Below, one piece after another: positions 25,762 through 61,031 of a stretch of 64,000 bases of DNA; within the stretch, counting starts at the first letter, position 1; every line of letters begins with the position of its first letter. The position numbers and the translations under genes are program-made. Source of the DNA: Flaccisagitta enflata (lineage: Eukaryota); assembly GCA_965153355.1 (NCBI GenBank), contig OZ231126.1, positions 45,508,001 to 45,572,000 on the forward strand, read 5' to 3'. The notes under the pieces were generated by a model that was given only the letters and a program-made list of their open reading frames with translations, was not told the DNA's origin and did not search any database.

Positions 25762-25800
<39 letters not shown>

Positions 25801-26585
25801 GATTGTTCATCTTGTTTTCTTTGCTATTCCTTGACAAATTGGTAAAAATCCTTGGGGCTGGTCTTGTTTGAAAGATATTAGGTAGTAGAACATAAGATAA
25901 GGAGAAGTAGCTGAAAGGGGTCCCAGTGGGGCCCTCTGGGGGTCCCCAAAGGACCCCAAATGACCAAAATAGCTGAAAATGGCTAAAAAATGAGGGGTTT
26001 TAGAGTTGTTTCTTCTCAAATGTTAATGGGGAGGACAATTTATGTTAAGATACTGTCACCTGGTTTGGAGCAACAAAAGAAAAGGTCAGGGGCCCCTCAG
26101 GGACCTATTCAAGGGGCCCCTAGATGCTCCAAAAGGCTTGAAATGGGCAAAAATGACCAAAATTTAAGCATTTTTATCAATTTTTTGCCATCTTTGACAA
26201 TGAATGGCCTAGTTATCTGTTTAGCTCTCTCATCAGTGCAGCAGAACTAGATAAGAAGGCTGAAGACCCCTGATGGGCCCATCCAGAGGATCTAAAGGAC
26301 CCATAATAGCCAAAAATGAGCAAATCTTGACATTTTTACACAATTCTTCTTTGATACATTGTTGGACTGCACCTGTTTACTGTTTATTGGAAGGATGATT
26401 GATTGATTGATTGAATGATTGATTGTTAGATTGATTCATATGTCATATATCATACCTCAATTATCATACATCATAGATAATAATTTACCTAATAAATGGA
26501 TAGATTTTTAGCTGCTGCTCATGCTTTTATGATCATTGTTTAATCATCATTGTTTTAGGCTTTGTTTCTTGTTTTTGTTTATATT

Positions 26586-26622
<37 letters not shown>

Positions 26623-34324: not shown

Positions 34325-34625
34325 CTTGTACATTCATGTATTACGAAGTCAGCACTTATACATTCATTTATTACAATGTCAGCACTAGCACATTCATTCA
34401 TTACAAAGTCAGGACTGAAGCATTCATTCATAACAAAGTCAGCACTTGTACATTCATTCATAACGAAGTCAGCACTTGTACATTCATTCATAACAAAGTC
34501 AGCACTTTTACATTCATTCATTACAAAGTCAGCACTAGTAGATTCATTCATTACAATGTCAGCACTTGAAAATTTATTCATTAAAATTTAAGCACTTGTA
34601 CATTCATGCAATTCAAAGTCAGCAT
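34325..34625 (+). repeat. 30-bp minisatellite (CATTCATTCATTACAAAGTCAGCACTTGTA)
   Basis: About 10 copies; 3-4 more at 32655-32780. Confidence 0.9.
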
Positions 34626-34626
34626 T

Positions 34627-36420: not shown

Positions 36421-36422
36421 TG

Positions 36423-37737
36423 AGTCAGCACTCGTACAAGTGATTACAAGGTCAGCACTTGTACATGTGATTACAATGTCAGCACTTGTACATGTGATTA
36501 CAATGTCAGCACTTGTACAAGTGATTACAATGTCAGCACTTGTACAAGTGATTACAATGTCAGCACTTGTACAAGTGATAACAATGTCAGCACTTGTACA
36601 AGTGATAACAACGTCAGCACTTGTACGAGTGATTACAATGTCAGCACTTGTACGAGTGATTACAATGTCAGCACTTGTACAAGTGATTACAATGTCAGCA
36701 GTTGTACAAGTGATTACAACGTCAGCACTTGTACAAGTGATAACAACGTCAGCACTTGTACAAGTGATAACAACGTCAGCACTTGTACAAGTGATAACAA
36801 CGTCAGCACTTGTACAAGTGATAACAACGTCAGCACTTGTACAAGTGATAACAACGTCAGCACTTGTACGAGTGATAACAACGTCAGCACTTGTACGAGT
36901 GATAACAACGTCAGCACTTGTACGAGTGATAACAACGTCAGCACTTGTACGAGTGATAACAAGGTCAGCACTTGTACGAGTGATAACAACGTCAGCACTT
37001 GTACGAGTGATAACAACGTCAGCACTTGTACGAGTGATAACAACGTCAGCACTTGTACGAGTAATAACATTGTCAGCACTTGTAAAAGTGATAACAACGT
37101 CAGCACTTGTAAAAGTGATAACAACGTCAGCACTTGTAAAAGTGATAACAACGTCAGCACTTGTAAAAGTGATAACAACGTCAGCACTTGTACAAGTGAT
37201 AACAACGTCAGCACTTGTAAAAGTGATAACAACGTCAGCACTTGTAAAAGTGATAACAACGTCAGCACTTGTACAAGTGATAACAACATCAGCACTTGTA
37301 AAAGTGATAACAACGTCAGCACTTGTAAAAGTGATAACAACGTGAGCACTTGTAAAAGTGATAACAACGTCAGCACTTGTACAAGTGATAACAACGTCAG
37401 CACTTGTACAAGTGATAACAACGTCAGCACTTTTACAAGTGATAACAACGTCAGCACTTGTACAAGTGATAACAACGTCAGCACTTGTACAAGTGATAAC
37501 AACGTCAGCACTTGTACAAGTGATAACAACGTCAGCACTTGTACAAGTGATAACAACGTCAGCACTTGTACAAGTGATAACAACGTCAGCACTTGTACAA
37601 GTGATAACAACGTCAGCACTTGTACAAGTGATAACAACGTCAGCACTTGTACAGGTGATAACAACGTCAGCACTTGTACAGGTGATAACAACGTCAGCAC
37701 TTGTACAGGTGATAACAACGTCAGCACTTGTATGAGT
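36423..37737 (+). repeat. 27-bp satellite (GTCAGCACTTGTACAAGTGATAACAAC)
   Basis: About 48 tandem copies, no spacers. Confidence 0.97.
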
Positions 37738-37856
37738 GATAATATAAGCCGGAATTCCACCCGGGCTTATTGCAATGCTCTCTCCGAATTAAATATCACA
37801 CCATCAGAGACCCCGAATCTGTCTGCAAAGAAAGAGAGACAGCTTCAGAGCATTTG

Positions 37857-38727: not shown

Positions 38728-38927
38728 TTTTTAGTCGCGTGCTACGCGACTCTACACCCCGCTTTGTCGGTCCGTCCGTCCGTCAGTCCGTCCGTCAGTC
38801 ACACTTTACTTTTTTTGGGTTTCGGGGATTTTTGGCTTCACTGCTCCTGCCCAAATGATCTGGTGACCTCAATTACGGCCCCTGCCCACCCACACGCGAC
38901 TAGGGTAGCCATGTATCCGGCCTTGTT
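38728..38927 (+). mobile_element. Intact HINE/Helentron-like family 1 element
   Basis: T-run, 5' subTIR hairpin AGTCGCGT-GCT-ACGCGACT, (GTCC)n, 3' subTIR CACGCGACT, terminal stem-loop, TT flank, no TSD. Confidence 0.8.
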
Positions 38928-38956
38928 GAAGCAAACTCGGAGTTGAAAGGATTAAA

Positions 38957-39154
38957 AACAAGGCCGGATACACGGCTACCTAAGTCGCGTGCAAGTGGGC
39001 AGGGGCTGTATTTGAGGTCACTTGATCACTTGGGCAGGAGCAGTGAGGGCAAAGATAAAAAAAACCCAAAAAAGTAAAGTGTGACCGACAGACGGACCGA
39101 CCCACAGACCGACAAAGCGGAACGTGGAGTCGCGTAGCACGCAACTAAAAAAAA
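38957..39154 (-). mobile_element. HINE family 1 copy, tail-to-tail with the previous one
   Basis: Reverse-complement similarity to 38728-38927; further minus copies at 15853, 25158, 40420, 42980. Confidence 0.8.
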
Positions 39155-40819: not shown

Positions 40820-41960
40820 GGGATATATATCATACTCCACGTTTTCGTAGATAGTCTTCGATTTCCTTATGCTCGACGTCAGGCCGCACATTGCCGATGT
40901 ATCGATAAGCGAGACGTTCGACGCCGCCCAAAGAGACTTCGCCCGCTGACTCGTTTGCCGGTAAACGTTGGTCGGTGATTCGCATTGTTGTCTCGTCGCT
41001 GTGTTGTTAGATTGTTCGTAGGCGGCCGTGACGCTGCAGCTCCCACACCCCCAGCAGGCTGTCCCCAGCGTCTCGCCATCGCAAGTGATAACAACGTCAG
41101 CACTTGTACAAGTGATAACAACGTCAGCACTTGAACAAGTGATAACAACATCAGCACTTGTACAAGCTCGCGTCAATTGCGATTTGACGTCTAGCTGCAT
41201 CGCCGTCGCTCGATGATGCGGTCAATTTGTTAGCACCCGTTTCGGTCGCCGTAGATTCGCCGCCAGGATTCGCTGCCGCGGCGCCGTTTGGTGAATGGTC
41301 GACGCGGTTTCTGACATTCGAGTCGCCACCTCGCCCGACGAGGTGGTATCCTTAGAAACAGCATCTTGGTTCGCCGTCGCAAAAGAACCGACGAGTAGAC
41401 TCAGCGTATCTTTGGTCACGCACATATTTTTAGTCGCGGACAAGCGACTCTATAAGAGGCTTTGTCCGTCCGTCCGTTGGTTGGTTGGTTGGTTGGTCGG
41501 TCCGTGGTGATCGAGTTGGAAAGTGTGAAAACGCGCATTTCCGCCCCTGCCCACCCGTCCGCGACTGGTATTGGCCGTGTATCCGGCCTTGTTCAATTGA
41601 GCAACATCGCGACTTATGGAATTGATTGCCGACATAATTTGACTCATTGACACGTTTCCATCTTCATTAAGCGGAATTCGAATTAAGTCACTAACAACAA
41701 AAGTGGGAATTGCTTCACTGTCGTTATCGAGAGAAGTAATAAGATCGTACATGTCTGGGAGCGTCTTTTGATAATTTTCATCACTTAGCAATTGGCAATT
41801 CACCATAATTTTTCAGCTTGTTTCAGATAAAACTCTTTTGGCGTTTTAAATTTCGTCAGCATCATAAAATTGGGCGCAGATTTCAACGATTTTATCGCGT
41901 GGCGTGGTCTGACTTATTCACGAGGAAAAACAACAGTGAGTTCAGGATTAACTTTCCCAT
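40820..41960 (-). pseudogene. Decayed ORF1 of a CR1/L2-type LINE
   Basis: From ATG at 41960: MGKLILNSLLFFLVNK / DKIVEICAQFYDADEI*NAKRVL...DMYDLITSLD...IPTFVVSDLIRIP...VSMSQIMSAINSISRDVAQLKNMCVTK; resembles invertebrate CR1/L2 ORF1 as I recall it; has stops, a frameshift and insertions. Confidence 0.65.
41430..41591 (+). mobile_element. HINE family 1 copy inserted in LINE ORF1
   Basis: Complete 5' and 3' ends at a T-run; removing it rejoins the ORF1 frame. Confidence 0.8.
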
Positions 41961-42720
41961 TCCCACCGTGGGTAGAGGAAAATCCTCCTCCCATAGAAAT
42001 CCACGTAAACAAGGAGCAGGGTAAGGATTCGTAGGATGTAATTAAATTGTGATTAAAACAAAGTCGCGTGCGAGACTAACAAAATGACTTAGAATGACTT
42101 AATATACTCTTAAATGACATAAGGAAATAAAATTGATAAAAAAAGTGTGACGGACCGACAGACAGACACAGACCGACCGACCGACGGACGGACAAAGCGG
42201 GGTGTAGAGTCGCGTGCACACGACTAAAAATATCCGAGAGAATGGTACGGCTTTTTCTTTTATGGTGGCCGCAAGTTGTCTGTCAAATTGTCTTGTCTCA
42301 ATCACATAAATTCAGAGAAAAAACTTGCGAAATGTGCGAGAGTAAAAATCGCCGCGCGGTTTCCACTTTTATACTGATTTAAAACGTTGATTAAGTACTT
42401 TGGATTGGTGAGAGATAGCCGCATGAAATTTTAAACTTGAAATATTTATACATAAGACTTCTCACTGACAATTTTTCAGTGCTGTCATGACCAGAAAACA
42501 TATTAACATAAACAAATTTTTTGATGAATTTTCGAATTTTTGACATTGAAAAAAAAGTTTTATGCAACTACCGCCAAAGTAACTACGTGATCGCTGTGCA
42601 ACTTACTCAGGATTTGTCAAGGGGTTGAATGGTTGTGCATGCAAAATTTCAGAGAATTTCGTAGAATATTATTTTAGCTACACTAATTTGAAATTTTTGA
42701 GCGGGTGGTTGCACCATCTG
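41782..42720 (+). repeat. Segmental duplicate, copy 1 (LINE 5' end + HINE + TIR-element arm)
   Basis: Direct, colinear similarity to 57617-57845 plus 58265-59112. Confidence 0.85.
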
Positions 42721-44152
42721 AAGTTTCCTGAAACTTCTCACATCAGCAGACAAGATCATATGATGTTACCATACAAAAAATCAAGTCAATCAGTCGATCT
42801 GTTCATGAGATATGAGCGTTCTAAGTTTGGGTAAATAAGGTCACGACGATTTCCGAGAAACAAGTCACGAACATGTTTTGTTCTCTGACGCAGCATATTT
42901 TGCGCTTGAATGCTCATGAAACCAGGAACTATTCTCATCATTTGATCACTACATTTAAAATATTAATATTCAAAAAACCAGGCCAAATACAAGGCTACCC
43001 CAGTCGCGTGCGTGTGGGCAGGGGCCATATTTGAGGTCACTTGATCATTGGGGCAGGAGCAGTGAGGCCAAAGACCACAAAAAAAAGTTAAGTGTAATGG
43101 ACGGACCAACGGAAGGACCGACAAAGCGGGGTAGAGTCGCGTAGCATGCGACTACACTTTTTTTTTATAAGAGTCATTTTTTTTTTAAGGCTTCATGTTC
43201 TTATTTTTAAGGCCAAATGAAGCCTTCAATTTTAAATTCCTCTAGCCTAGCAAAGACGAACGAAGGTTTATATCCAGGGACCAGACAGAGAGACAGAGAC
43301 ACAGGCACACGCGATTGTGCGCGCATATGAAGGTTTGGCAAACCATGACGTTACGACGTGACTTACAACCATGAATAGCATGTCAAGATAACAAAGCTAG
43401 AGTTCAACCCAAATTGCAGACATTTTAGGCAAGAGCGACTCTAAATAAAAGTTATATTATGGATCATCGGAGGGACAGAGTAGAGCAACCTGAAGTCGCT
43501 TGTCCACGACTGAAAATCACCAATTTGTCAGTTGCCTCTCAAAAATGAATAGCCCCGATACTGGTGTCATCCTTACACCCCCCACCACAATAGGATAAAA
43601 ACAAAGATTAAAGGACAGACTATCGTCAATTTATTTGAGAGAACACTTGAGAGGGTGTTCCAATCAAGAGCGTTTTTAGTCGCGGACACGCGACTCTACA
43701 CCTTGCCGTGTCGGTCCGTCCGTCCGTCCCGTAACATTTTTGAATTCCGAGCGGTTTTTGCACTACTGCTCCTGCCCAACCGCCCGCGACTGTATTGCCG
43801 TGTATCCGGCCTTGTTAAAATTCAAGTACCTTGCCGCCGATTGTGACGTTGTTGGGATTCAGAATTGTAACGGACAAACCAACCTATGGACTAACATGGC
43901 AAGGTGGTTGCGTGACCGCGACTAGAAACTAAAATGGCGAATAACAATTATGGTCGTAAGATAAGAATAGATTAGGATTGATCCAAGCCGGCAGAAAGAA
44001 ATGGGACGCTTGCAACAGACATGTTAGTCCACAGCAGCTGCCAATCGGACATGCACAACTCGGAATAAAGCCGAGAGAGAGAAATATGTTAGTTACTCCA
44101 CAGCAGCTGCCAATCGGACAAGCATAACTCGGAACAAAGCCCCGAGAGAGAG

Positions 44153-46457
44153 AGACAATCGTCAACTTATTTAAGAGGACAGACAGTCGTCAACTTATTT
44201 GAGAGGACAGACAGTCGTCAACTTATTTGAGAGGACAGACAATCGTCAACTTATTTGAGAGGACAGACAATCGTCAACTTATTTGAGAGGACAGACAATC
44301 GTCAACTTATTTGAGAGGACAGACAATCGTCAACTTATTTGAGAGGACAGACAATCGTCAACTTATTTGAGAGGACAGACAATCGTCAACTTATTTGAGA
44401 GGACAGACAATCGTCAACTTATTTGAGAGGACAGACAATCGTCAACTTATTTGAGAGGACAGACAATCGTCAACTTATTTGAGAGGACAGACAATCGTCA
44501 ACTTATTTGAGAGGACAGACAATCGTCAACTTATTTGAGAGGACAGACAATCGTCAACTTATTTGAGAGGACAGACAATCGTCAACTTATTTGAGAGGAC
44601 AGACAATCGTCAACTTATTTGAGAGGACAGACAATCGTCAACTTATTTGAGAGGACAGACAATCGTCAACTTATTTGAGAGGACAGACAATCGTCAACTT
44701 ATTTGAGAGGACAGACAATCGTCAACTTATTTGAGAGGACAGACAATCGTCAACTTATTTGAGAGGACAGACAATCGTCAACTTATTTGAGAGGACAGAC
44801 AATCGTCAACTTATTTGAGAGGACAGACAATCGTCAACTTATTTGAGAGGACAGACAATCGTCAACTTATTTGAGAGGACAGACAATCGTCAACTTATTT
44901 GAGAGGACAGACAATCGTCAACTTATTTGAGAGGACAGACAATCATCAACTTATTTGAGAGGACAGACAATCGTCAACTTATTTGAGAGGACAGACAATC
45001 GTCAACTTATTTGAGAGAACAGACAATCGTCAACTTATTTGAGAGGACAGACAATCGTCAACTTATTTGAGAGGACAGACAATCGTCAACTTATTTGAGA
45101 GGACAGACAATCGTCAACTTATTTGAGAGGACAGACAATCGTCAACTTATTTGAGAGGACAGACAATCGTCAACTTATTTGAGAGGACAGACAATCGTCA
45201 ACTTATTTGAGAGGACAGACAATCGTCAACTTATTTGAGAGGACAGACAATCGTCAACTTATTTGAGAGGACAGACAATCGTCAACTTATTTGAGAGGAC
45301 AGACAATCACAACTTATTTGAGAGGACAGACAATCGTCAACTTATTTGAGAGGACAGGCAATCGTCAACTTATTTGAGAGGACAGGCAATCGTCAACTTA
45401 TTTGAGAGGACAGACAATCGTCAACTTATTTGAGAGGACAGACAATCGTCAACTTATTTGAGAGGACAGACAATCGTCAACTTATTTGAGAGGACAGACA
45501 ATCGTCAACTTATTTGAGAGGACAGACAATCGTCAACTTATTTGAGAGGACAGACAATCGTCAACTTATTTGAGAGGACAGACAATCATCAACTTATTTG
45601 AGAGGACAGACAATCGTCAACTTATTTGAGAGGACAGACAATCATCAACTTATTTGAGAGGACAGACAATCGTCAACTTATTTGAGAGGACAGACAATCG
45701 TCAACTTATTTGAGAGGACAGACAATCGTCAACTTATTTGAGAGGACAGACAATCGTCAACTTATTTGAGAGGACAGACAATCGTCAACTTATTTGAGAG
45801 GACAGACAATCGTCAACTTATTTGAGAGGACAGACAATCGTCAACTTATTTGAGAGGACAGACAATCGTCAACTTATTTGAGAGGACAGACAATCGTCAA
45901 CTTATTTGAGAGGACAGACAATCGTCAACTTATTTGAGAGGACAGACAATCGTCAACTTATTTGAGAGGACAGACAATCGTCAACTTATTTGAGAGGACA
46001 GACAATCGTCAACTTATTTGAGAGGACAGGCAATCGTCAACTTATTTGAGAGGACAGACAATCGTCAACTTATTTGAGAGGACAGACAATCACAACTTAT
46101 TTGAGAGGACAGACAATCGTCAACTTATTTGAGAGGACAGACAATCGTCAACTTATTTGAGAGGACAGACAATCGTCAACTTATTTGAGAGGACAGACAA
46201 TCGTCAACTTATTTGAGAGGACAGACAATCGTCAACTTATTTGAGAGGACAGACAATCGTCAACTTATTTGAGAGGAAAGACAATCGTCAACTTATTTGA
46301 GAGGACAGACAATCGTCAACTTATTTGAGAGGACAGACAATCGTCAACTTATTTGAGAGGACAGACAATCGTCAACTTATTTGAGAGGACAGACAATCGT
46401 CAACTTATTTGAGAGGACAGACAATCGTCAACTTATTTGAGAGGACAGACAATCGTC
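44153..46457 (+). repeat. 28-bp satellite array A2 (GAGGACAGACAATCGTCAACTTATTTGA)
   Basis: About 82 highly homogeneous copies. Confidence 0.98.
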
Positions 46458-46467
46458 TGATCATTAA

Positions 46468-46662
46468 ATCAGCACTTGTGGATTGATCACTAGGTCAGCA
46501 CTTGTGGATTGATCACTAGGTCAGCACTTGTGGATTGATCACTAGGTCAGCACTTGTGGATTGATCACTAGGTCAGCACTTGTGGATTGATCACTAGGTC
46601 AGCACTTGTGGATTGATCACTAGGTCAGCACTTGTGGATTGATCACTAGGTCAGCACTTGTA
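46468..46662 (+). repeat. 26-bp minisatellite (GTCAGCACTTGTGGATTGATCACTAG)
   Basis: About 7 near-identical copies. Confidence 0.93.
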
Positions 46663-46671
46663 TTCATATGA

Positions 46672-47278
46672 ACTTGCTTTCCACAATGCAAGTGGCCCCC
46701 ATGCTGGCCCCATCCGAATATCCCCAACCATCCTGGATACATGTCTGTCACATGATTGCTAATGAGTATTCAAATGAAATGATTTCATTCCAGTTACTTT
46801 CCACAATGCAAGTGGCCCCCATGCTGGCCCCATCCTTATATCCCCAACCATACTAGATACATCTGACATTGGAGAATTCTGGCCTCCTTTTGTTAGGGCA
46901 ATGTTGTTTCAACTTTCATAAGTGCGATTGACACTTCAGATTTCATTTCAGATGAAATAATTTCATTTCAGTTGCTTTCCAATTTTGAGTGGCCCCCATG
47001 CTGGCCCCATCCTTATATCCCCAACCATCCTAAATACATCTAACATAAGTGCGATTGACACTTCAGATGAAATGATTTCATTTCAGATGAAATGATTTCA
47101 TTTCAGATGAAATGATTTCATTTCAGATGAAATGATTTCATTTCAGATGAAATGATTTCATTTCAGATGAAATGATTTCATTTCAGATGAAATGATTTCA
47201 TTTCAGTTGCTTTCCAATTTTGAGTGGCCCCCATGCTGGCCCCATCCTTATATCCCCAACCATCCTAGATACCTACAT
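46672..47278 (+). repeat. Block B: GTGGCCCCCATGCTGGCCCCATCC modules with 20-bp TTTCAGATGAAATGATTTCA repeats
   Basis: Four modules; reverse-complement copies at 52088-52825 and 54018-54427. Confidence 0.9.
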
Positions 47279-47292
47279 TCATTACATTCATT

Positions 47293-47890
47293 TAAAATGG
47301 AATGAAAACTGAAATGGAATGAAAACTGAAATGGAATGAAAACTGAAATGGAATGAAAACTGAAATGGAATGAAAACTGAAATGGAATGAAAACTGAAAT
47401 GGAATGAAAACTGAAATGGAATGAAAACTGAAATGGAATGAAAACTGAAATGGAATGAAAACTGAAATGGAACGAAAACTGAAATGGAACAAAAACTGAA
47501 ATGGTACCAAAACTGAAATGGAACGAAAGCTGAAATGAAATGAAAGCTGAAATGGAACGAAAGCTGAAATGGAATGAAAGCTGAAATGGAATGAAAGCTG
47601 AAATGGAATGAAAGCTGAAATGGAATGAAAGCTGAAATGGAATGAAAGCTGAAATGGAATGAAAGCTGAAATGGAATGAAAGCTGAAATGGAATGAAAGC
47701 TGAAATGGAATGAAAGCTGAAATGGAATGAAAGCTGAAATGGAATGAAAGCTGAAATGGAATGAAAGCTGAAATGGAATGAAAGCTGAAATGGAATGAAA
47801 ACTGAAATGGAATGCAAACTGAAATGGAATGAAAACTGAAATGGAAAGAAAACTGAAATGGAATGAAAACTTAAATGGAATGAAAACTGA
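47293..47890 (+). repeat. 17-bp GGAAT-containing satellite (TGGAATGAAA[A/G]CTGAAA)
   Basis: About 35 copies. Confidence 0.95.
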
Positions 47891-50800
47891 AATGATTTCA
47901 TTCCAGTTGGAAGTCTCTATAGTAACAACTGAAATAAAATCATTTCAGATTTCATTCCAACTGAAATGATTTCATTTCAGTTCTTACTATAGAGACTTCC
48001 AACTGGGATGAAAACTGAAATGATTTCATTCCAGTTGGAAGCCTATAGTAAGAACTGAAATGAAATCATTTCAGATTTTATTCAAATGAAATCATTTCAG
48101 ATCTCATCTCAGTTCCCATTATAGAGACTTCCAACCGGAATGAAAACTGAAATGATTTCATTCCAGTTTGAAGTCTATATAGTAAGAACTGAAATGAAAC
48201 CTGAAATAATTTCATTTCAGATTTCATTCCAACTGAAATGATTTCATTTCAGATTTCATTCCAACTGAAATGATTTCATTTCAGTTCTTACTATAGAGAC
48301 TTCCAACTGGAATGAAAACTGAAATGATTTCATTCCAGTTGGAAGTCTATATAGTAAGAACTGAAATGAAATCATTTCAGATTTCATTCCAACTGAAATT
48401 ATTTCATTTCAGTTCTTATTATAGAGACTTTCAACTGAAATGAAATCATTTCAGATGGATTCTTATCTGAACTGAAGTCATATCAGTAGTAATGAAATCT
48501 GAAATGAAATCATTTCAGATTTCATTCCAACTGAAATGATTTCATTTCAGTTCTTATTATAGAGACTTCCAACTGGAATGAAAACTGAAATGATTTCAGT
48601 TCTTGCTATAGAGACTTCCAACTGGAATGAACACTGAAATGATTTCATTCCAGTTGGAAGTCTATATAGTAAGAACTGAAATGATTTCATTTCAGATTTC
48701 ATTCCAACTGAAATGATTTCATTTCAGTTCTTACTATAGAGACTTCCAACTGGAATGAAAACTGAAATGATTTCATTCCAGTTGGAAGTCTATATAGTAA
48801 GAACTGAAATGAAATCATTTCAGATTTCATTCCAACTGAAATGATTTCATTTCAGTTCTTACTAAAGAGACTTCAAACTGGAATGAAAACTGAAATGATT
48901 TCATTCCAGTTGGAAGTCTATATAGTAAGAACTGAAATGAAATCATTTCAGATTTCATTCCAACTGAAATGATTTTATTTCAGTTCTTATTAGAGAGACT
49001 TTCAACTGGAATGAAAACTGAAATGCTTTCATTCCAGTTGGAAGTCTATATAGTAAGAACTGAAATAAAATCATTTCAGTTGGAATGCAGGCTGACATGG
49101 AATGAAAACTGAAATGATTTCATTCCAGTTGGAAGTCTATATAGTAAGAACTGAAATGAAATCATTTCAGATTTCATTCCAACTGAAATGATTTCATTTC
49201 AGTTCTTATTATAGAGACTTCCAACTGGAATGAAAACTGAAATGATTTCAGTTCTTGCTATAGAGACTTCCAACTGGAATGAAAACTGAAATGATTTCAT
49301 TCCAGTTGAAAGTTTATATAGTAAAAACTGAAATGAAATCATTTCAGATTTCATTCCAACTGAAATGATTTCATTTCAGATTTCATTCCAACTGAAATGA
49401 TTTCATTTCAGTTCTTACTATAGAGACATCCAACTGGAATGAAAACTGAAATGATTTCATTCCAGTTGGAAGTCTATATAGTAAGAACTGAAATGAAATC
49501 ATTACAGATTTCATTCCAACTGAAATGATTTCATTTCAGATTTCATTCCAAATGAAATGATTTCATTTCAGATTTCATTCCAAATGAAATGATTTCATTT
49601 CAGTTCTTACTATAGAGACTTCCAACTGGAATGAAAACTGAAATGATTTATCTCCAGTTGAAGTCTATAGTAAGAATTGAAATGATTTCATTTCAGATTT
49701 CATTCCCTAATCTGAAATGATTTCTATTTTCAGTTCTTACTATAGAGACTTCCCCTAACTGGAATGAAAAACTGAAGCTCTCATTCCAGTCGGAAGTCTA
49801 CATGTTTCAGAATTGAATGAAATTGTTTCAGATTTATTCTAACGGAAATGATTCTCAGTTTAAATGGCTATAGACACTTTCCAACTGGAATGAAAACACG
49901 AAATGATTTCTATCTCCAGTTGAAGTCCATATAGTGCTAAACTGGAAATGAAAACTGACATTTCAGGCTCTCATTCCAACTGAAATGATTCTACTTCAGT
50001 TCTTACTATAGAGACCTCCAACTGAAATGAAAACTGAAATGATTTCATTCCAGGTTGAAGTCTATATAGTAAGAACTGAAATGATTTCATTCAACTCAGA
50101 TTTCATTCCAACTGAAATGATTTCATTCTCAGATTATCCAACTGAAAATGACTTAATTCTACTATAGAGACTTCCAACTGGAATGAAAATGAATGATTCA
50201 TCATTTTAGTGTCTATATAGTAAGAACTGAAATGAAATCATCCAATCTGCCTCATTCCAACTGAAATGATTTCATTTCAGTTCTTACTTTAGAGACTTCC
50301 AACTGGAATGAAAACTGAAATGATTTCATTCCAGTTGGAAGTCTATATAGTAAGAACTGAAATGAAATCATTTCAGATTTCATTCCAACTGAAATGATTT
50401 CATTTCAGATTTCATTCCAACTGAAATGATTTCATTTCAGTTCTTACTATAGAGACTTCCAACTGGAATGAAAACTGAAATGATTTCATTCCAGTTGGAA
50501 GTCTATATAGTAAGAACTGAAATGAAATCATTTCAGATTTCATTCCAACTGAAATGATTTCATTTCAGTTCTTATTATAGAGACTTCCAACTGGAATGAA
50601 AACTGAAATGATTTCAGTTCTTGCTATAGAGACTTCCAACTGGAATGAAAACTGAATGATTTGGCCCCAGTTGAAGTTCATATAGCAAGAACTGATATGA
50701 TTTTCATTCTCAGATTTCATTCCAACTGAAATGATTTCATTTCAGTTCTTACTATAGAGACTTCCAACTGGAATGAAAACTGAAATGATTTCATTCCAGT

Positions 50801-51245
50801 TGGAAGCCTATATAGTTAGAACTGAAATGAAATCATTTCAGATTTCATTCCAACTGAAATGATTTCATTTCAGTTCTTACTAGAGAGACTTCCAACTGGA
50901 ATGAAAACTGAGCCGATTTCATTCTGAATGAAGACAATAGAGAAGAACTGAAATGAAATCTGGTTTCAGATTTTATTCCAACTGAAAGCAGTTTCATTTC
51001 AGATTTCATTCCCACTGAAATGATTCATTTCAGTTTCATTATAGAGATATCCAACTGAATGAAAAACGGAAAATGATTTATCTAGCAAGTCTATATAGGG
51101 TAAGAACTGAAATGAAATCATTTGCATTTCATTCCAACTGAAATGATTATTCAGTTCTTACTATAGAGACTTCCAACTGAATGAAACTGAAATGATTTCA
51201 TTCCAGTTGGAAGTCTATATAGTAAGAACTGAAATGATTTCATAT
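47890..51245. repeat. 128-bp hairpin satellite
   Basis: Example unit: arm 48708-48760, loop 48761-48770, arm 48771-48823, one mismatch; next unit starts at 48836. Confidence 0.92.
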
Positions 51246-51292
51246 TTCAGGTTATTTCATTCACACATGCAACTGAACGAAGCACAACTCCA

Positions 51293-52078
51293 ATTCAGGT
51301 TTCATTCCATTTCAGGTTTCATTAAATTGCAGGTTTCATTCCATTTCAGGTTTCATTCCATTTCAGGTTTCATTCAAATTCAGTTTTCATTCCATTTCAG
51401 TTTTCATTCCATTTCAGTTTTCATTACATTTCAGTTTTCATTCCATTTCAGTTTTCATTCCATTTCAGTTTTCATTCCATTTCAGTTTTCATTCCATTTC
51501 AGCTTTCATTCCATTTCAGCTTTCATTCCATTTCAGCTTTCATTCCATTTCAGCTTTCATTCCATTTCAGCTTTCATTCCATTTCAGGTTTCATTCCATT
51601 TCAGGTTTCATTTTATCTCCTCAGTTTTCATTTCATCTCAGCTTTCATTCCATTTCAGCTTTCATTCCATTTCGGCTTTGTTATTTCAGCTTTATTCCAT
51701 TTCAGCTTTCTAATCGACGGACAGACGTACATTTCTAACATTCCATTTCAGCTTTCATTCCATTTCAGCTTTCATTCCATTTCAGCTTTCATTCCATTTC
51801 AGTTTTCATTCCATTTCAGTTTTCATTCCATTTCAGTCTTTATTCCATTTCAGTTTTGATTCCAACAACTGGTTTCATTTCAGTTCTTACTATAGAGACT
51901 TTAAACTGGAATGAAATCATTTCAGTTTTCATTCCAAATGAAATGATTTTATTTCAGTTCTTACTATAGAGACTTCCAACTTGAATGAGATCATTTCAGT
52001 CTTCATTCCATTTCAGTTTTCATTCCATTTCAGTCTTCATTCCATTTCAGTTCTCATTCCATTTCAGTTTTCATGCCA
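51293..52078 (-). repeat. 17-bp satellite, opposite orientation
   Basis: (TTCATTCCATTTCAG[C/T]T)n; another tract at 53220-54000. Confidence 0.93.
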
Positions 52079-52087
52079 TGAAATGAA

Positions 52088-52825
52088 GTAGGTATCTAGG
52101 ATGGTTGGGGATATAAGGATGGGGCCAGCATGGGGGCCACTTAAAATTTGAAAGCAACTGAAATGAAATCATTTCATCTGAAATGAAATTATTTCATCTG
52201 AAATGAAATCATTCCATCTGAAATGAAATCATTTCATCTGAAATGAAATCATTTCATCTGAAATGAAATTATTTCATCTGAATGAAATATTTCATCTGAG
52301 AATTTCAATTGCAATTATTATTAAGATGTATCTAGGATGGTTGGGGATATAAGGATGGGGCCAGCATGGGGGCCACTCAAAATTGGGAGGCAACTGAAAT
52401 CAAATCATTTCATCTGAAGTTTCAATTGCACCTATGTGAGATGTATCTAGGATGGTTGGGGATATAAGGATCAATTCACCTGAAATGTATAAGGATGGGG
52501 CCAGCATGGGGGCCACTCAAAAATGAGAGGCAACTGAAATGAAATCATTTCATCTGAAGTTTCAAATGCACTTAAGTGAGATGTATCTAGGATGGTTGGG
52601 GATATAAGGATGGGGCCAGCATGGGGGCCACTCAAAATTGGGAGGCAACTGAAATAAAATCATTTCATCTGAAGTTTCAATTGCACTTATGTGAGATGTA
52701 TCTAGGATGGTTGGGGATATAAGGATGGGGCCAGCATGGGGGCCACTTGCATTGTGGAAAGCAACTGGAATGAAATCATTTCATATGAATACTCATTGGC
52801 AATCATGAGAAAGATGTATCCAGGA
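52088..52825 (-). repeat. Block B, inverted copy
   Basis: GGATGGGGCCAGCATGGGGGCCAC modules mirror 46730-47278. Confidence 0.9.
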
Positions 52826-54427
52826 CCAGGGGGATATATAGTATGGTTTCCCCCCCCCTGGGTGGGGGGAGAATAAAATGAAAGGGTTTACAGAAGGGGA
52901 AAAAATCAAGCAAGTTGACGATTGTCTGTCCTCTCAAGCAAGTTGACGAAATCTTGTCTGTCCTGAAATCATTTCAGATTTCATTCCAACTGAAATGATT
53001 TCATTTCAGTTCAAGTTGACGAAATCTTGTCTGTCCTGAAATCATTTCAGATTACATTTCAGATTACATTTCAGTTGAAACTGAAATAAAGTCATTTCAG
53101 AGATGAAGCTGAAATGGAACTGAAACTGAAACTGAAACTGAAATGGAACTGAAACTGAAATGGAACTGAACTGAAATGGAACTGAAATGAAATCATTTCA
53201 GAAATGAAATCATTTCAGATTTCATTCCATTTCAGATTTCATTCCAATTCAGCTTTCATTCCATTTCAGCTTTCATTCCATTTCAGCTTTCATTCCATTT
53301 CAGCTTTCATTCCATTTCAGCTTTCATTCCATTTCAGCTTTCATTCCATTTCAGCTTTCATTCCATTTCAGCTTTCATTCCATTTCAGCTTTCATTCCAT
53401 TTCAGCTTTCATTCCATTTCAGCTTTCATTCCATTTCAGCTTTCATTCCATTTCAGCTTTCATTCCATTTCAGCTTTCATTCCATTTCAGCTTTCATTCC
53501 ATTTCAGCTTTCATTCCATTTCAGCTTTCATTCCATTTCAGCTTTCATTCCATTTCAGCTTTCATTCCATTTCAGCTTTCATTCCATTTCAGCTTTCATT
53601 CCATTTCAGCTTTCATTCCATTTCAGCTTTCATTCCATTTCAGCTTTCATTCCATTTCAGCTTTCATTCCATTACAGTTTTCATTCCATTTCAGTTTTCA
53701 TTTCATTTCAGTTTTCATTCCAACTGAAATGATTTCATTTCAGTTCTTACTATAGACACTTCCATTTCAACTTTCATTCCAGTTTAGTTAATATTCCATT
53801 TCAGTTTTCATTTCATTTCAGTTTTCATTTCATTTCAGTTTTCATTTCAGTTTTCATTTCATTTCAGTTTTCATTTCATTTCATTTCAGTTTTCATTTCA
53901 TTTCATTTCATTTTTCATTTCATTTCAGTTTTCATTCCATTTCAGCTCATTCCATTTCAGCTCTCATTCCATTTCAGTCCCTATTCCATTTCAGTTTTCA
54001 TTTCATGAACATGTACCTCGGATGGTTGGGGATATAAGGATGGGGCCAGCATGGGGGCCACTCAAAATTGGAAAGCAACTGAAATGAAATCATTTCATCT
54101 GAAATGAAATCATTTCATCTGAAATTTCAATTGCAATAATGTGTGATGTATCTAGGATGGTTGGGGATATAAGGATGGGGCCAGCATGGGGGCCACTTGA
54201 AATTGGAAAGCAACTGAAATGAAATCATTTCATCTGAAATGAAATCATTTCATCTGAAATGAAATCATTTCATCTGAAATGAAATCATTTCATCTGAAAT
54301 GAAATCATTTCATCTGAAATGAAATCATTTCATCTGAAATGAAATCATTTCATCTGAAATGAAATCATTTCATCTGAAATTTCAATTGCAATAATGTGTG
54401 ATGTATCTAGGATGGTTGGGGATATAA

Positions 54428-56801
54428 GTCAAATAAGTTGACGATTGCCTGTCCTCTTATATAAGTTGACAATTGCCTGTCCTCTCCTCTCAAATAAGTT
54501 GACGATGGTCTGTCCTCCTCAAATAAGTTGTGATGGTCCTGTCCTCTCAAATAAGTTGACGATGGTCTGTCCTCTCAAATAAGTTGACGATGGTCTGTCC
54601 TCTCAAATAAATTGACGATGGTCTGTCCTCTCAAACAAGTTGACGATGGTCTGTCCTCTCAAATAAGTTGACGATGGTCTGTCCTCTCAAATAAGTTGAC
54701 GATGGTCTGTCCTCTCAAATAAGTTGACGATGGTCTGTCCTCTCAAATAAGTTGACGATGGTCTGTCCTCTCAAATAATAAGTTGACCGATGGTCTGTCC
54801 TCTCAAAATAAGTTGACGATGGTCTGTCCTCTCAAATAAGTTGACGATGGTCTGTCCTCTCAAATAAGTTGACGATGGTCTGTCCTCTCAAACAAGTTGA
54901 CGATGGTCTGTCCTCTCAAATAAGTTGACGATGGTCTGTCCTCTCAAATAAGTTGACGATGGTCTGTCCTCTCAAATAAGTTGACGATGGTCTGTCCTCT
55001 CAAATAAGTTGACGATGGTCTGTCCTCTCAAATAAGTTGACGATGGTCTGTCCTCTCAAATAAGTTGACGATGGTCTGTCCTCTCAAATAAGTTGACTAT
55101 GGTCTGTCCTCTCAAATAAGTTGACGATGGTCTGTCCTCTCAAATAAGTTGCCGATGGTCTGTCTCCTCAAATAAGTTGATGATGGTCTGTCCTCTCAAA
55201 TAAGTTGACGATGGTCTGTCCTCTCAAATAAGTTGACTATAGTCTGTCCTCTCAAATAAGTTGACGATGGTCTGTCCTCTCAAATAAGTTGCCGATGGTC
55301 TGTCCTCTCAAATAAGTTGTTGATGGTCTGTCCTCTCAAATAAGTTGACGATGATCTGTCCTCTCAAATAAGTTGGCGATGGTCTGTCTTCTCAAATAAG
55401 TTGACGATGGTCTGTCCTCTCCAATAAGTTGACGATAGTCTGTCCTCTCAAATAAGTTGACGATGGACTGTCCTCTCAAATAAGTTGACGATGGTCTGTC
55501 CTCTCAAATAAGTTGACGATGGTCTGTCCTCTCCAATAAGTTGACGATGGTCTGTCCTCTCCAATAAGTTGACGATGGTCTGTCCTCTCCAATAAGTAGC
55601 CGATGGTCTGTCCTCTCAAATAAGTTGACGATGGTCTGTCCTCTCAAATAAGTTGACGATGATCTGTCCCCTCAAATAAGTTGACGATGGTCTGTCCTCT
55701 CAAATAAGTTGTTGATGGTCTGTCCTCTCAAATAAGTTGACGATGGTCTGTCTCCTCAAATAAGTTGACGATGGTCTGTCCTCTCAAATAAGTTGACGAT
55801 GGTCTGTCCTCTCAAATAAGTTGACGATGGTCTGTCCTCTCAAATAAGTTGGCGATGGTCTGTCCTCTCAAATAAGTTGACTGTGGTCTGTCCTCTCAAA
55901 TAAGTTGTGATGGTCTGTCCTCTCAAATAAGTTGGCATCTGATGGTCTGTCCTCTCAAATAAGTTGACGATGGTCTGTCCTCTCAAATAAGTTGACGATG
56001 GTCTGTCCTCTCAAATAAGTTGACGATGGTCTGTCCTCTCAAATAAGTTGACGATGGTCTGTCCTCTCAAATAAGTTGACGATGGTCTGTCCTCTGTTAT
56101 AAGTTGACGTTGGTGTTTCATCTGAAATTTCAATTGCAATAATGTGTGATGTATCTAGGATGGTTGGGGATATAAGTCAAATAAGTTGACGATTGCCTGT
56201 CCTCTTATATAAGTTGACAATTGCCTGTCCTCTCAAATAAGTTGACGATGGTCTGTCCTCTCAAATAAGTTGACGATGGTCTGTCCTCTCAAATAAGTTG
56301 ACGATGGTCTGTCCTCTCAAATAAGTTGACGATGGTCTGTCCTCTCAAATAAGTTGACGATGGTCTGTCCTCTCAAATAAGTTGACGATGGTCTGTCCTC
56401 TCAAATAAGTTGACGATGGTCTGTCCTCTCAAATAAGTTGGCGATGGTCTGTCCTCTCAAATAAGTGCAGCGATGGTCTGTCCTCTCAAATAAGTTGATG
56501 GTCTGTCTCTCAAATAAATTGGCGATGGTCTGTCCTCTCAAATAAATTGGCCGATGGTCTGTCCTCTCAATTAAATTGTGATGGTCTGTCCTCTCAATTA
56601 AATTGTGATGGTCTGTCCTCTCAAATAAATTGTACGATGGTCTGTCCCCTCAAATAAGTTGACGATGGTCTGTCCTCTCAAATAAGTTGACGATGGTCTG
56701 TCCCTCTCAAATAAGTTGACAATGGTCTTCCCTCTCAAATAAGTTGACGATGGTCTTCCCTCTCAAATAAGTTGACGATGGTCTGTTCTCTCAAATAAGT
56801 T
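54428..56801 (-). repeat. 28-bp satellite array A3, inverted (AAGTTGACGATGGTCTGTCCTCTCAAAT)
   Basis: About 80 copies; reverse complement of A2 with one fixed difference; interrupted at about 56110-56180 by a block B end. Confidence 0.96.
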
Positions 56802-56825
56802 CAGTATGTTTGATGTTTACAACTT

Positions 56826-57482
56826 TAGCACTTGTGCGAGTAATTTTAATGTCAGCACTTGTTCAAGTTATTAAAACGTCAGCACTTACACGAGTAAATT
56901 ACAACGTCAGCACTTGCACGAGTAATTACATTGTCAGCACTTGCACCAGTAATTACATCGTCAGCACTAGCAATTACTGTCAGCACTTGCACGAGTAATT
57001 ACTGTCAGCACTTGCAAGAGTAATTACATCGTCAGCACTAGCAATTACTGTCAGCACTTGCACGAGTAATTACTGTCAGCACTTGCAAGAGTAATTACAT
57101 CGTCAGCACTTGCACGAGTAATTACATTGTAAGCACTTGAACGAGTAATTACATCGTCAGCACTTGCTGAGTACAGTGGAGCACCTAGAGCACAACTGCT
57201 AATAAGACATGCCCGCCTATAAGGCATTTAACCTACAGTCCATTGAAAGATTTTGCAGTTTTTTTCATGTTGGCAAGAAGGCAGTTTCACTAAACAGCAT
57301 AATTTGGTCCAGCTCTAGTGAAGTTCAACTGTAATTACAATGTCAGTACTTGTAGAGTAATTACAAAGTCAGCACTTGTACGAGTAATTATAAAGTCAGC
57401 ACTTGTACGAGTAATTACAAAGTCAGCACTTGTACGAGTAATTACAAAGTCAGCACTTGTACGAGTAATTACAAAGTCAGCT
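56826..57482 (+). repeat. Diverged 27-bp GTCAGCACTTG-core minisatellite
   Basis: Unit GTCAGCACTTGTACGAGTAATTACAAA. Confidence 0.9.
57174..57331. mobile_element. Tc1/mariner-type MITE inserted in a 27-bp monomer
   Basis: TA TSD at 57172-57173 and 57332-57333; CAGT...ACTG ends; homolog at 9913-10098. Confidence 0.8.
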
Positions 57483-57616
57483 TAGTGCTTTTCCATGTAG
57501 TTACAATTGCAGCATCTGAGGGAAGGAAAGCAATCATCACTCGTCAGATGATGGCATACCTTGAAGTCCATGATGGCATACATTGAAGTCCATGATGGCA
57601 TATCCTAAAAACTATT

Positions 57617-59112
57617 CACTTCGCAATTGGTGATTCACCATAATTTTTCCGCTTGTTTCAGATAAAACTTTTTCGCCGTTTAAAATTTCGGTAGCATCAT
57701 AAAATGAGCGCAGATTTCAACTATTTTATCGCGTGGATTAGTCTTTGACTTATTCACGAGGAAAAAACAATTGAGTTCAGGAACAACTTTCCCATTCCCA
57801 CTGAGGGCAGGGAAAGAGGAAATTCCTCTTCCCATAGAAATCCGCATGAGCTTGAGCTTGAGCTTGAGCTCTAGCTTGAGCTTGAGCTAAGCATAGTCTG
57901 AGAGCGAAACATGTTCGTGACTTTTTTTTTAAGTGGCGGAAATCGTCATGACTTTTTTTACCCAAACTTTGAAAGCTCATATCTCTTTAACGGATTGACC
58001 AATTGGCTTGACTTTTTGCATGGTAACATCATTTGACCTTTTTTACTGATGTGTGAAGTTCAAAGAAATTTCAGATAGTGTAACCACCCGAACCAGCCTA
58101 CCTACCAAAAAATTTTAAATTGGCGTAGCTAATAAAGAATTCAACGAAATTTTCTGAAATTCCGCATGAATAACCATCCAACCCCGGGACAAATCCTGGG
58201 AAAGTTGTACGGCGATCAGGTAATTTCTTTGGCCGTAATCGCATAAAACATTTTTTTCATGTTGCAAGGATTTGTAGGATGTAATTAAATTGTGATTAAA
58301 ACAAAGTCGCGTGCGAGACTAACAAAATGACTTAGAATGACTTAATATACTCTTAAATGACATTAGGAAATAAAATTGATAAAAAAAGTGTGACAGACCA
58401 ACAGACAGACCGACAGACCAACCGACGGACGGACGGACGGACAAAGCGGGGTGTAGAGTCGCGTGCACGCGACTAAAAATATCCAAAAGAATGGTACGGC
58501 TTTTTCTGTTATGGTGGCCGCAAGTTGTCTCAGTAAAATTGTCTTGTCTCAATCACATAAGTTCAGAGAAAAAACTTGCGAAATGTGCGTGAGTATAAAT
58601 CGCCGCGCGGTTTCCACTTTTATACTGATTTAAAACATTGATTAAGTACTTTGGATTGGTGAGAGATAGCCGCATGAAATTTTAAACATGAAATATTTAT
58701 ACATATCTATACATATTTATACATATTTATACATACATTTATACATATTTATACATACATTTATACATATTTATACATACATTTATACATATTTATACAC
58801 AAATTTTAAACATGAAATATTTATACATAAGATTCATACATATCTCACTGACAATTATTCAGTGATGTCATGACCAGAAAACATATTAACTTATAAAAAT
58901 TTTTTGATGAATTTTCGAATTTTTGACATTGAAAAAAAAGTTTTATGCAATTACCGCCAAAGTAACTACGTGATCGCTGTGCAACTTACTCAGGATTTGT
59001 CAAGGAGTTGAATGGTTGTTCATGCTAAATTCCAGAAAATTTCGTAGAATATTATTTTAGCTACGCTAATTTGAAATTTTTGAGCAGGTAGGCTAGCTCG
59101 GGTGGTTGCACC
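57617..59112 (+). repeat. Segmental duplicate, copy 2
   Basis: Matches 41782-42720; extra 57900-58260 is inverted relative to 42550-42880 and 58930-59110. Confidence 0.85.
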
Positions 59113-59719
59113 ATGCGATGTATTGCTCAACAACATTAATGACAAGACTACCCAAGCCTGTACCAACTGTCAATGTTTGGAGAGTGTGGCATTTGGAGGA
59201 ATTGAACGATATAGGCCCTAAGAATTCACACTGCCTCCTACCTGTTTTTCTTTTCTTCTTCCTGTTCTTCCACTCATCTCCATCTTCCTCCTTCTGTCTT
59301 TCCTTCTTCTTTTCTTCTTCCTTCTTCTTTCATCTCCTCTTCTCTTCCTTTTCTTCATCTCTCATCCCTTCCTTTTCTTCCTCTCCACCTTCTCTTCGCC
59401 CTTGCCTGCCCGCCTTCTTCTGTCTGCCTTCTTTCACTTCTTCTTCAGCAGCTTGACCATTTACCTTCTTTCTTCAGTTTCTTCTTCTATTTGTCTTCTT
59501 CACACACACCCACCAGATTTTTGTTAACTGGTTCCTACCAATTTCACCCTTAAATCTATTCCTTTTCCTTCATATCTTCTGACATTCACACACTTTGGCC
59601 ACTCTTTACTTTCTGTCCTCCTGGCTACTTGCTATCCTCTCTCTCTCTTCTTCTTAACTTGTAATGTTACTTGATCACCACTAGGATGATATTATACTTT
59701 GAGCAAAAGAAGAGGAAGA

Positions 59720-60047
<328 letters not shown>

Positions 60048-60822
60048 GTTTTTTCATCTGCAGTAAAGAATCATCGTAATGAAGTTCAGGAGATTGACAC
60101 ATTCTCATGTTACAGACAGTTCCATAATAACCAGCACTGAGAACAAGAAAATTCATCGAAGGGATTATTATCAATTTGTTCCTTTACATCCACATTTTGT
60201 CGCAAGTATGTCCTTTTGAACGCGCTTTGACTTCAGTTCTCTATCTGTTTCCTTTCATCTAATTATTTCTATCGGCAACAGTTAAACCTGGTGAAACTTA
60301 CAGTCGCTTGCAGTAAACACAAAATAATTTTGATATAAATTTGACTTAGCAACCAGCAAAGAGTGGTTTTTAGAGTCTCATTGACGCAACTAAAAAGAAG
60401 ACAGATATTATACTATAATCGAAGCCTTCGAATGTACAGTTATTACTTATTAGTGGCCTATAATACATGATTATCTTCATCATTTCAAGAGATGATTTCT
60501 GTCCCATTTTCTCAATATTTACCTTCTATTCCATTTCCTGTAAGACGTTCACAATTTCATCGTCTAGACCAAGGGTCTCATTAACAGCCACACGAGAAGC
60601 TGGCTCATCATAATTGTCATTTCGGTCGTCTGAGACTGAGGTGCTGAGGTGGCGGGTGATAACTCTGCTTTGATTTTTATTCCTATTCGTAAATGATGTT
60701 TTTTCTAACCTCAAAACATTTCGAATTTCATAGTCACACGAAGCCGTAAGCTGACTGCTGGTCCGACCACCGTAAGGCCGTTGTGAAATTACCTCTTCAC
60801 TTCGATATGTGCCTCTACCAAA

Positions 60823-61031
60823 AACAAGGCCGGATACACGGCTACCCCAGTCGCGTGCGGGTGGGCAGGGGCCGTAACTGAGGTCAATGCATCATTTGGG
60901 CAGGAGCAGTGAGTCCAGGGACCGCAAAAAAACAAAACAAAAAAAGTAAAGTGTAACGGACGGACGGACGGACGGACCTACGGACGGACCGACAAAGCGG
61001 GGTGTAGAGTCGCGTAGCACGCGACTAAAAA
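60823..61031 (-). mobile_element. Intact HINE family 1 copy
   Basis: AACAAGGCCGGATACACGGC...AGTCGCGTAGCACGCGACTAAAAA. Confidence 0.82.

Follow-up and report, generated by a model that had tools for sequence, protein, structure and literature searches.

Mirror-ordered composite satellite arrays in Flaccisagitta enflata and their possible origin by inversion

Satellite arrays that run in both orientations over kilobases have been described from the centromeres of Tribolium freemani, where TfSat01 and TfSat03 form kb-long inverted subarrays with stems that are asymmetric through unequal copy numbers, where the inversion segments are conserved across several chromosomes, and where orientation changes at truncated monomers with no extraneous sequence (as set out in the parts of PMC12581902 drawn on here). 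The same parts cite complex satellites with inverted subunits from Tribolium brevicornis, T. madens and T. audax, the enrichment at centromeres of dyad-symmetric monomers with predicted non-B DNA (Kasinathan and Henikoff 2018), and occasional orientation switches in mouse centromeric and pericentromeric arrays that were attributed to inversions (Packiaraj and Thakur 2024). Inverted arms are found too in transposons of the foldback type: according to the portions of the sources used here, Tetris of Drosophila virilis has 8-10-bp target-site duplications, defined termini and terminal inverted repeats (TIRs) of up to ~1.7 kb (PMC4079207), and Rehavkus, which is related to Mutator-like elements, has 9-bp target-site duplications and TIRs of 26-400 bp (PMC6446971; PMC12581902). 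Here we analyse a locus of mirror-ordered tandem repeats from Flaccisagitta enflata, at positions 44144-56801 of a 64,000-nucleotide stretch of DNA (assembly GCA_965153355.1, contig OZ231126.1, forward-strand positions 45,508,001 to 45,572,000) that we refer to as the window. A first-pass annotation, made from the letters of the sequence, had described this locus as a satellite complex with nested mirror symmetry around a hairpin core. The macro-dyad arrays of T. freemani are, on the portions of PMC12581902 used, the closest known described case.

The locus consists of tandem repeats that are nested and non-coding. Arrays were called with Tandem Repeats Finder on the window, and a 14-mer map shows the same mirror relations. 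From left to right the modules are a 28-mer(+) array, a 26-mer array, a block termed B(+), a 17-mer(+) array, a 3.3-kb core, the pair 17-mer(-) and B(-) twice over, and a 28-mer(-) array; the modules and order given by the first-pass annotation are thus borne out by the repeat calls, by the 14-mer map and by the strand counts of the B motif. Each arm, followed in its own direction, runs from a 28-mer array through B and a 17-mer array into core or core-like sequence, and the locus reads best as copies of a super-unit made up of 28-mer array, block B, 17-mer array and an array of ~128-bp palindromic core units. The left super-unit, U_L, occupies 44144-51245 on the plus strand and carries the full 3.3-kb core. 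On the minus strand lie U_b (56801 back to 53043) and, in direct tandem with it, U_a (53042 back to 51292), in which the 28-mer array is reduced to ~3 remnant units. U_b and U_a read best as consecutive direct repeats of one super-unit standing head-to-head with U_L, because on the minus strand the 17-mer array at 53211-54006 is followed by ~170 bp of degenerate core-like sequence, then by ~3 28-mer-derived units and then by the inner B and 17-mer modules, the order that would be expected of tandem units. When 51,292-56,801 is re-inverted in silico, U_L, U_b and U_a come to lie in direct order and are followed by plus-oriented 27-mer arrays and a flanking segment, X. We therefore lean towards the view that a direct three-unit array of a composite satellite underwent one two-break inversion and that its arrays then evolved separately.

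Compared with T. freemani, as far as the account in PMC12581902 was available, the locus has the same kb-long inverted subarrays, with the 28-mer, B and 17-mer modules following one another in mirrored order on the two strands, and it also shares the asymmetric stems, at least two interleaved families, short dyad symmetries and very high abundance. It differs in that the core and 17-mer(-) are kept apart at the switch by ~45 bp, which include a 30-nt linker with a single occurrence in the window, and in that a four-part super-unit with 28-, 20-, 17- and 128-bp periods stands in the place of the single T. freemani monomer. Like the dyad-symmetric monomers cited in the same source, the core monomer is a long palindrome, with stems of ~44 bp, that folds far better than its shuffled versions; set against centromeric dyad satellites, the core array extends over only 3.3 kb in this window. 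The mouse arrays, as cited there, offer a parallel in that an inversion inside a direct satellite array gives a local strand switch, although the organism and the repeat families differ. We conclude that the locus is a further example of the inverted satellite arrangement known from other animals.

U_L opens with the 28-mer(+) array at 44144-46457, which we call A44 (82.7 copies, 98% matches, consensus GTCAACTTATTTGAGAGGACAGACAATC). It is followed on the plus strand by 7.8 copies of a 26-mer of the GTCAGCACTTG family (46458-46661), which separate the 28-mer array from B in the left arm and in no other, and by block B(+) (46662-47294), which has four units with the GGCCCCCATGCTGGCCCCATCC motif and contains a 20-mer array at 47062-47206. 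The 17-mer(+) array (47295-47894) has 35 copies, arranged as ten AAAC units, an irregular patch, 14 AAGC units and five AAAC units, and it passes seamlessly into the first unit of the core. The core itself (47895-51245) is plus-oriented throughout and forms a direct tandem array with periods of 128, 160 and 433, built of palindromic units. The strand-switch point at 51246-51291 includes the 30-nt linker (51262-51291), and beyond it the inner right arm, Ra, begins with a 17-mer(-) array at 51289-52079 (called at 51289-51864 and 51992-52079) in which core-like fragments are embedded. Block B(-) of Ra (52080-52904) has five motif copies, a 20-mer(-) array at 52158-52299, 115/140-bp units called on the minus strand by Tandem Repeats Finder at 52348-52789, a degenerate outermost unit and a short spacer. 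The remnant of the Ra 28-mer array (52905-53042, minus strand) comprises, by direct reading of the sequence, ~3 whole or partial units, of which the intact one is of the ACAATC type, with an interleaved core fragment. Degenerate core- and 17-like filler at 53043-53210 lies between U_a and U_b. The outer right arm, Rb, then starts with the 17-mer(-) array at 53211-54006, which includes an AAGC block of ~25 units, and continues with block B(-) at 54007-54428 (repeat call of Tandem Repeats Finder at 54011-54380, minus strand), which holds two motif copies and a unit that is cut at GGGGATATAAG, where the 28-mer array starts. This 28-mer(-) array, A54 (54429-56801), has 84.4 copies with 91% matches and is of the ACCATC variant, its first units at 54429 being of the GGCAATC type. 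A 24-nt linker at 56802-56825, again without a further copy in the window and put forward here as the second breakpoint of the inversion, joins it to 27-mer arrays of the GTCAGCACTTG family at 56827-57481, which are plus-oriented and unmirrored.

The position of the strand switch was located with 65 strand-specific 12-mers. Between 47.75 and 51.25 kb each 250-bp bin contained 13-118 plus-type against 0-9 minus-type matches, and minus-type words dominate from 51,251. Self-matches of the core reach 78-79% (78.6%) on the plus strand, compared with ~70-72% on the minus strand. It can be seen from this that the core is a direct tandem array in one orientation and not the hairpin with an axis near 49.7 kb that had been proposed; its units at ~49.75-50.0 kb are merely degenerate, and the orientation switch is sharp and falls within 51,246-51,291. 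The impression of a hairpin core arises because each ~128-bp unit itself holds a palindrome. One core unit is predicted to fold as a single-stranded DNA hairpin at -48.9 kcal/mol (z = -15.3) and two further units gave z = -5.8 and -6.4, so that each of the three units outscored every one of 200 shuffles; the 28-mer (z = -0.15) and the 17-mer (no structure) folded no better than shuffled sequence. When the sequence is read directly, the 17-mer and the 20-mer are seen to be amplified sub-segments of the core unit, and the nested symmetry at 17, 20 and 128 bp is therefore a family relationship rather than a set of independent layers. Symmetry at the 20-bp and 128-bp scales, as noted in the first-pass annotation, is real, but the kb-scale mirror around a central hairpin core is not.

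The arms were compared over block B and the 17-mer arrays. A 22-nt B motif occurs four times on the plus strand (46694-47247), seven times on the minus strand (52117-52744 and 54038-54194) and nowhere else in the window, giving 11 matches where 0.01 would be expected. In mirror orientation the arms are 90.4-95.7% identical over ~1.2-1.4 kb of B and 17-mer sequence, with values of 91.6/90.4% for the left arm (L) against Ra and 95.7/94.2% for L against Rb; when the orientation is wrong, the alignment of B covers half its length at 74-76%, and none is obtained for the 17-mer arrays. The B units follow the same order in L and Ra, with the CACAATGCAAG type outside and the CAATTTTGAG type inside (two of each in L), and the B-to-17 junction (CCTAGATACCTAC...) is common to L and Ra and is recognisable, but diverged, in Rb. 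The 17-mer variants succeed one another as AAAC, AAGC and AAAC in the arms, with Ra mirroring the left arm. Since the B-to-17 junction, the order of B units and the order of 17-mer variants are all shared, we conclude that the arms descend from one ancestor that was already structured. They differ in length, in module content and in their junctions. The 26-mer had been thought to be restricted to the left side: the inner 26-mer array is indeed found in the left arm only, but the GTCAGCACTTG family is present at 56827-57481 as well, in plus orientation. A piece at 52827 in the right arm had also been labelled as the end of a hAT element; this label was rejected, as the piece (~52800-52870) is the degenerate outermost B unit of Ra and aligns to 46709-46768 of the left arm.

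The 28-mer arrays carry variants that are specific to each array. At column 24 of the unit, A is found in all 79 units scored in A44 and in all 54 units of a third array, A34 (34628-36421), and C is found in 62 of 67 units of A54, which bears out the fixed difference between the arms that had been reported before. Within A44, 67 of the 79 28-nt units are identical, and 44 of the 54 units of A34 also have C at column 12. The A-type state of the other two arrays is retained in the first A54 units next to B (the GGCAATC type), in the last inner-edge unit of A54 that was scored and in the Ra remnant unit. Variants fixed across whole arrays, together with a retained A state, are the mark of arrays that were homogenised separately once the copies existed. 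Array-specific fixed variants cannot come from a foldback chimeric read; such a read would also be expected to give near-identical mirror arms about a single point, and the arms here are 90-96% alike. The earlier view that this is a real, evolved inversion and not a foldback read agrees with the 4-10% divergence of the arms, the fixed variants and the unequal lengths and junctions, and that the rearrangement is old and real is supported.

The sequence on either side of the locus helps to define where the rearrangement stops. The left flank at 41082-43154 (plus strand; 27-mer x3 and segment X) is directly repeated at 56827-61031, and the two flanks are colinear, a 27-mer array being followed in each by four matching segments that are 77-94.5% identical. 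Because the sequence to the right of 56826 is plus-oriented and colinear with the left flank, the rearrangement ends at 56801. The colinearity of the flanks suggests that ~16 kb around the satellite island took part in an earlier segmental duplication. The right copy (56827-61031) is stretched to ~2.4x the left one (41082-43154). Repeats of the GTCAGCACTTG family, that is, 26-, 27- and 30-mers, lie on both sides of the third 28-mer array and outside the right 28-mer(-) array. That third array belongs to a related, plus-strand array set outside the complex at 34325-37742, in which a 30-mer array (34325-34624) is followed by the 28-mer(+) array (34628-36421) and a 1.3-kb 27-mer array (36424-37742), the 30-mer and the 27-mer both being of the GTCAGCACTTG family. 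The 28-mer(+) array in this set is made up of 63 copies, carries a TTTCAGAGG variant of its own and includes six units of 38 nt, and the 27-mer unit of the set contains the palindrome CACTTGTACAAGTG. Further to the right, at 38728-39151, is a 424-bp near-perfect palindrome (79.5% self-complementary, ends TAGTCGCGTGCTACGCGACTC), partial copies of which are present in both flanks (42973-43154 and 60820-61031); it looks like a member of a foldback family of miniature inverted-repeat transposable elements (MITEs).

We also assessed how abundant the modules are in sequencing runs. Words sampled from 46300-56299 were found to 23% and 14% in runs of one organism and to 5-8% in six marine-metagenome runs, the latter hinting at the presence of the organism, or of a relative, in marine samples. 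The comparison with reads and contigs covered 50700-53300 in 30 bins and included two DNA runs of the same organism, X1 and X2. Depth was seen in 29 of the 30 bins in X1, in 26 in X2 and in 22 in a marine metagenome, X4. Word depth, which is not a copy number, was 169,723 (X1) and 117,576 (X2) in the core bin at 50700-50786, from a few hundred to ~23,000 in the B bins, and 27.1 (X1) and 3.88 (X2) in the lowest non-zero bins. All modules are highly repeated in the genome. In both runs there are contigs (depths 203 and 310) in which B passes into 28-mer units exactly at GGGGATATAAG of the motif, as it does at 54428, but the 28-mer variant is a different one. A variant 17-to-B junction was likewise present among the contigs, at a depth of 293. 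As the B-to-28-mer junction recurs and the modules are of very high depth, we take the super-unit to be a genomic family and not a one-off.

How the arrangement arose can be approached from these observations. An origin from a direct array by inversion, which we hold to be somewhat probable, would start from U_L-U_b-U_a in direct tandem; a single two-break inversion of ~5.5 kb would have had its breakpoints at the linkers 51246-51291 and 56802-56825 and left short filler at both junctions, and each array would afterwards have expanded, contracted and been homogenised independently by slippage or unequal exchange. In the re-inverted layout the core precedes the 28-mer array of the next unit, which matches the arrangement of U_b and U_a, and one inversion would account for the mirrored order of the modules, the presence of the minus modules twice over, a core on one side only, the abruptness of the switch and a right flank that is not mirrored. 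Several points weigh against this explanation. An inversion leaves unexplained why U_L has a 26-mer array where its 28-mer array would otherwise meet B, and why B starts there at another point than at the B/28 junction of U_b; the arm identities, being pairwise values for three taxa that give no topology, single out no history; no read or contig has been shown across either breakpoint, the Logan contigs listed being of 47-133 bases; X1 may be the source sample of the assembled window and so is possibly not independent; and the depths given above do not translate into copies. In addition, the type of the outermost B unit and the 28-mer remnant beyond it are common to L and Ra specifically, and a mirror duplication of L fits this sharing as well as an inversion does. 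The main rival is therefore an inverted duplication, in which a break or stalled fork within or beside the palindromic core led, through fold-back priming or template switching in an event of the breakage-fusion-bridge type or one based on replication, to the copying of L in reverse as Ra, with Rb arising later by direct duplication of the right arm; the breakage-fusion scar suggested in the first-pass annotation would belong here. It would make sense of the outer CACAATGCAAG B units, the B-to-17 junction and the 28-mer units beyond B that L and Ra have in common, the core units are strong predicted hairpins able to prime fold-back, and there is short filler at the switch point. However, L shows no greater identity with Ra (91.6/90.4%) than with Rb (95.7/94.2%), in a comparison of three sequences that cannot decide the matter, two events are required where inversion needs one, the direct tandem of U_b and U_a with its core-like stretch comes free under inversion, and the core is not duplicated in reverse. 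We regard such a duplication as rather unlikely.

A transposon would be a different kind of explanation, and the first-pass annotation had named a giant Foldback-like element among its suggestions. The basic plan of a non-autonomous foldback-type element (like FB, Tetris, Galileo or Rehavkus), with subrepeat TIRs and the core as middle domain, is present, in that inverted [28-B-17] arms of tandem subrepeats, 90-96% alike, surround the 3.3-kb core. As in Tetris and Rehavkus, so far as the cited portions of their descriptions go, the long inverted arms contain subrepeats in tandem from which satellite arrays can grow, the middle is without coding sequence and the structure is modular and readily rearranged; kb-long arms with motifs nested inward resemble the plan of Tetris in particular (PMC4079207, in part). 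The modules and the B/28 junction are moreover multi-copy in the genome, and long-TIR and palindromic MITE-like elements are found elsewhere in the window. The locus departs from the plan in that the right arm is present twice, the left 28/B boundary is unlike the right one, the core continues the orientation of the left arm, and a 28-mer array also stands alone at 34.6 kb. No 7-10-bp direct repeat flanks 44144 and 56801, as 44081-44175 and 56771-56860 share no 7-10-mers (0 matches), and the two outer ends have neither a shared nor a non-repetitive terminal domain, nor an inverted flank match near them. The left end starts ...GAGAGACAATCGTCAACTTATTT after a (GA)n run, and the right end, as reverse complement, starts AACTTATTTGAGAGAACAGACC after the single-occurrence linker, so that the ends begin in different 28-mer phases and abut unrelated sequence. 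Arms of 1.7-3.8 kb that have no target-site duplication or defined terminal domains set the locus apart from Tetris and Rehavkus as described in those portions, and so does the outcome of a Pfam scan of 117 of the 122 high-complexity open reading frames (ORFs) of at least 70 aa in the window (five inside arrays were left out), in which no transposase or PHD-finger ORF was found; no ORF scanned reached the curated cut-off, and the only matches were sub-threshold and of low complexity, for example to Atrophin-1. Because the tests for a target-site duplication and for termini fail and the flanks are direct and not inverted repeats, we do not class the locus as a foldback transposon, and an origin of this kind is in our view decidedly unlikely. 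Extremely unlikely, we believe, is an assembly artefact, be it a chimeric read that folds back on itself or the false joining of two oppositely oriented satellite loci. Assembly is difficult in satellite regions, and the absence of a spanning read bears on this possibility too, but the arms are 4-10% different, unequal in length and content, and marked by array-wide fixed variants; the orientation changes on the 30-nt linker, of which the window has a single copy, and not in a shared repeat, where mis-joins arise, which makes a mis-join unlikely; and contigs of X1 (with the reservation about its source given above) match the right-arm-specific stretches 52777-52894 and 53012-53138 exactly, with 0 other letters. 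Finally, the locus could be a functional one, at which transcription of the arms into a long hairpin would yield double-stranded RNA and small RNAs able to silence the family throughout the genome or to nucleate heterochromatin, an idea compatible with the structural readings. Arms that are 90-96% alike over ~1.2-1.4 kb, in an abundant family, would be a suitable substrate. Against this, no sign of transcription came to light, neither a promoter nor an RNA family or conserved element was detected, and nothing sets the locus apart from any other satellite strand switch. No RNA run was among those listed as sharing sampled words of 46300-56299, and one polyA RNA run gave two partly fitting reads in 12,162,974 records (~6 in 100 of the run), which is uninformative for small or non-polyadenylated RNA. 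We consider such a role very unlikely.

The window around the locus is eukaryotic sequence, gene-poor and rich in (GA)n microsatellites and minisatellites, and scans of it for Rfam families and tRNAs gave 0 matches. The B motif was matched in metagenome contigs at two loci, which are GC-rich (64-67%) and share only 22 bases with it, and these were set aside as chance matches. Viral contigs gave no match to the B motif, the core word or the 28-mer word, prokaryote genome contigs gave none to the core word or the 28-mer word, and four repeat strings had no exact-string match in the literature searched. Three other structures in the window were noted. At 25781-29017 there is a 3.2-kb element-like structure with 670-bp inverted ends that are 92.8% identical; its left end is set within a run of poly(A), and a clear target-site duplication was not seen. 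A 21-mer array at 23200-23762 reverses mid-way (23303-23408 against 23406-23646, 78-88% self-complementary) and adjoins a 570-bp (AG)n run, and this reversal is a small-scale strand switch of the same kind as that at 51246-51291. The first 1100 nucleotides (1-1100) are GC-rich (67%) and have Gly/His-like coding-type repeats of 24, 45 and 48 bp (GGTGGTGGC...); this is the only part of the window that looks as though it could be an exon, and the two of its ORFs that were scanned had no Pfam match, a complexity filter having kept out of the scan the two longest (158-802 on the plus strand and 391-1074 on the minus strand).

The locus is probably an island without coded function. Its palindromic units and kb-scale inverted arms would, to judge from their sequence, be prone to form hairpins or cruciforms, and this could matter for replication stability or for chromatin. 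A further idea, which we think quite unlikely, is that the head-to-head order is recurrent and conserved in the most abundant satellite family of the organism, with the super-unit as a cassette that spreads by foldback-type transposition or by extrachromosomal circles and builds macro-dyad, hairpin-prone (peri)centromeric chromatin in this marine planktonic eukaryote, much as has been proposed for T. freemani. If this were so, the locus would offer a second, independent case, far removed in lineage, in which a centromeric satellite is defined by its structure and not by its sequence. The locus would take on greater importance only if genome-wide data showed that strand switches recur and mark centromeres or silencing centres. 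The analysis also carries a caution, in that the 'mirror symmetry' of a satellite can come from palindromic monomers together with a single strand switch. If the origin by inversion that we favour is correct, the locus would represent a fully resolved case of how a complex satellite is built and rearranged: 17- and 20-bp periods would have been amplified from a palindromic 128-bp unit, families would have been joined into a super-unit, one inversion would have created dyad symmetry on the kb scale, and the arrays would then have been homogenised separately.

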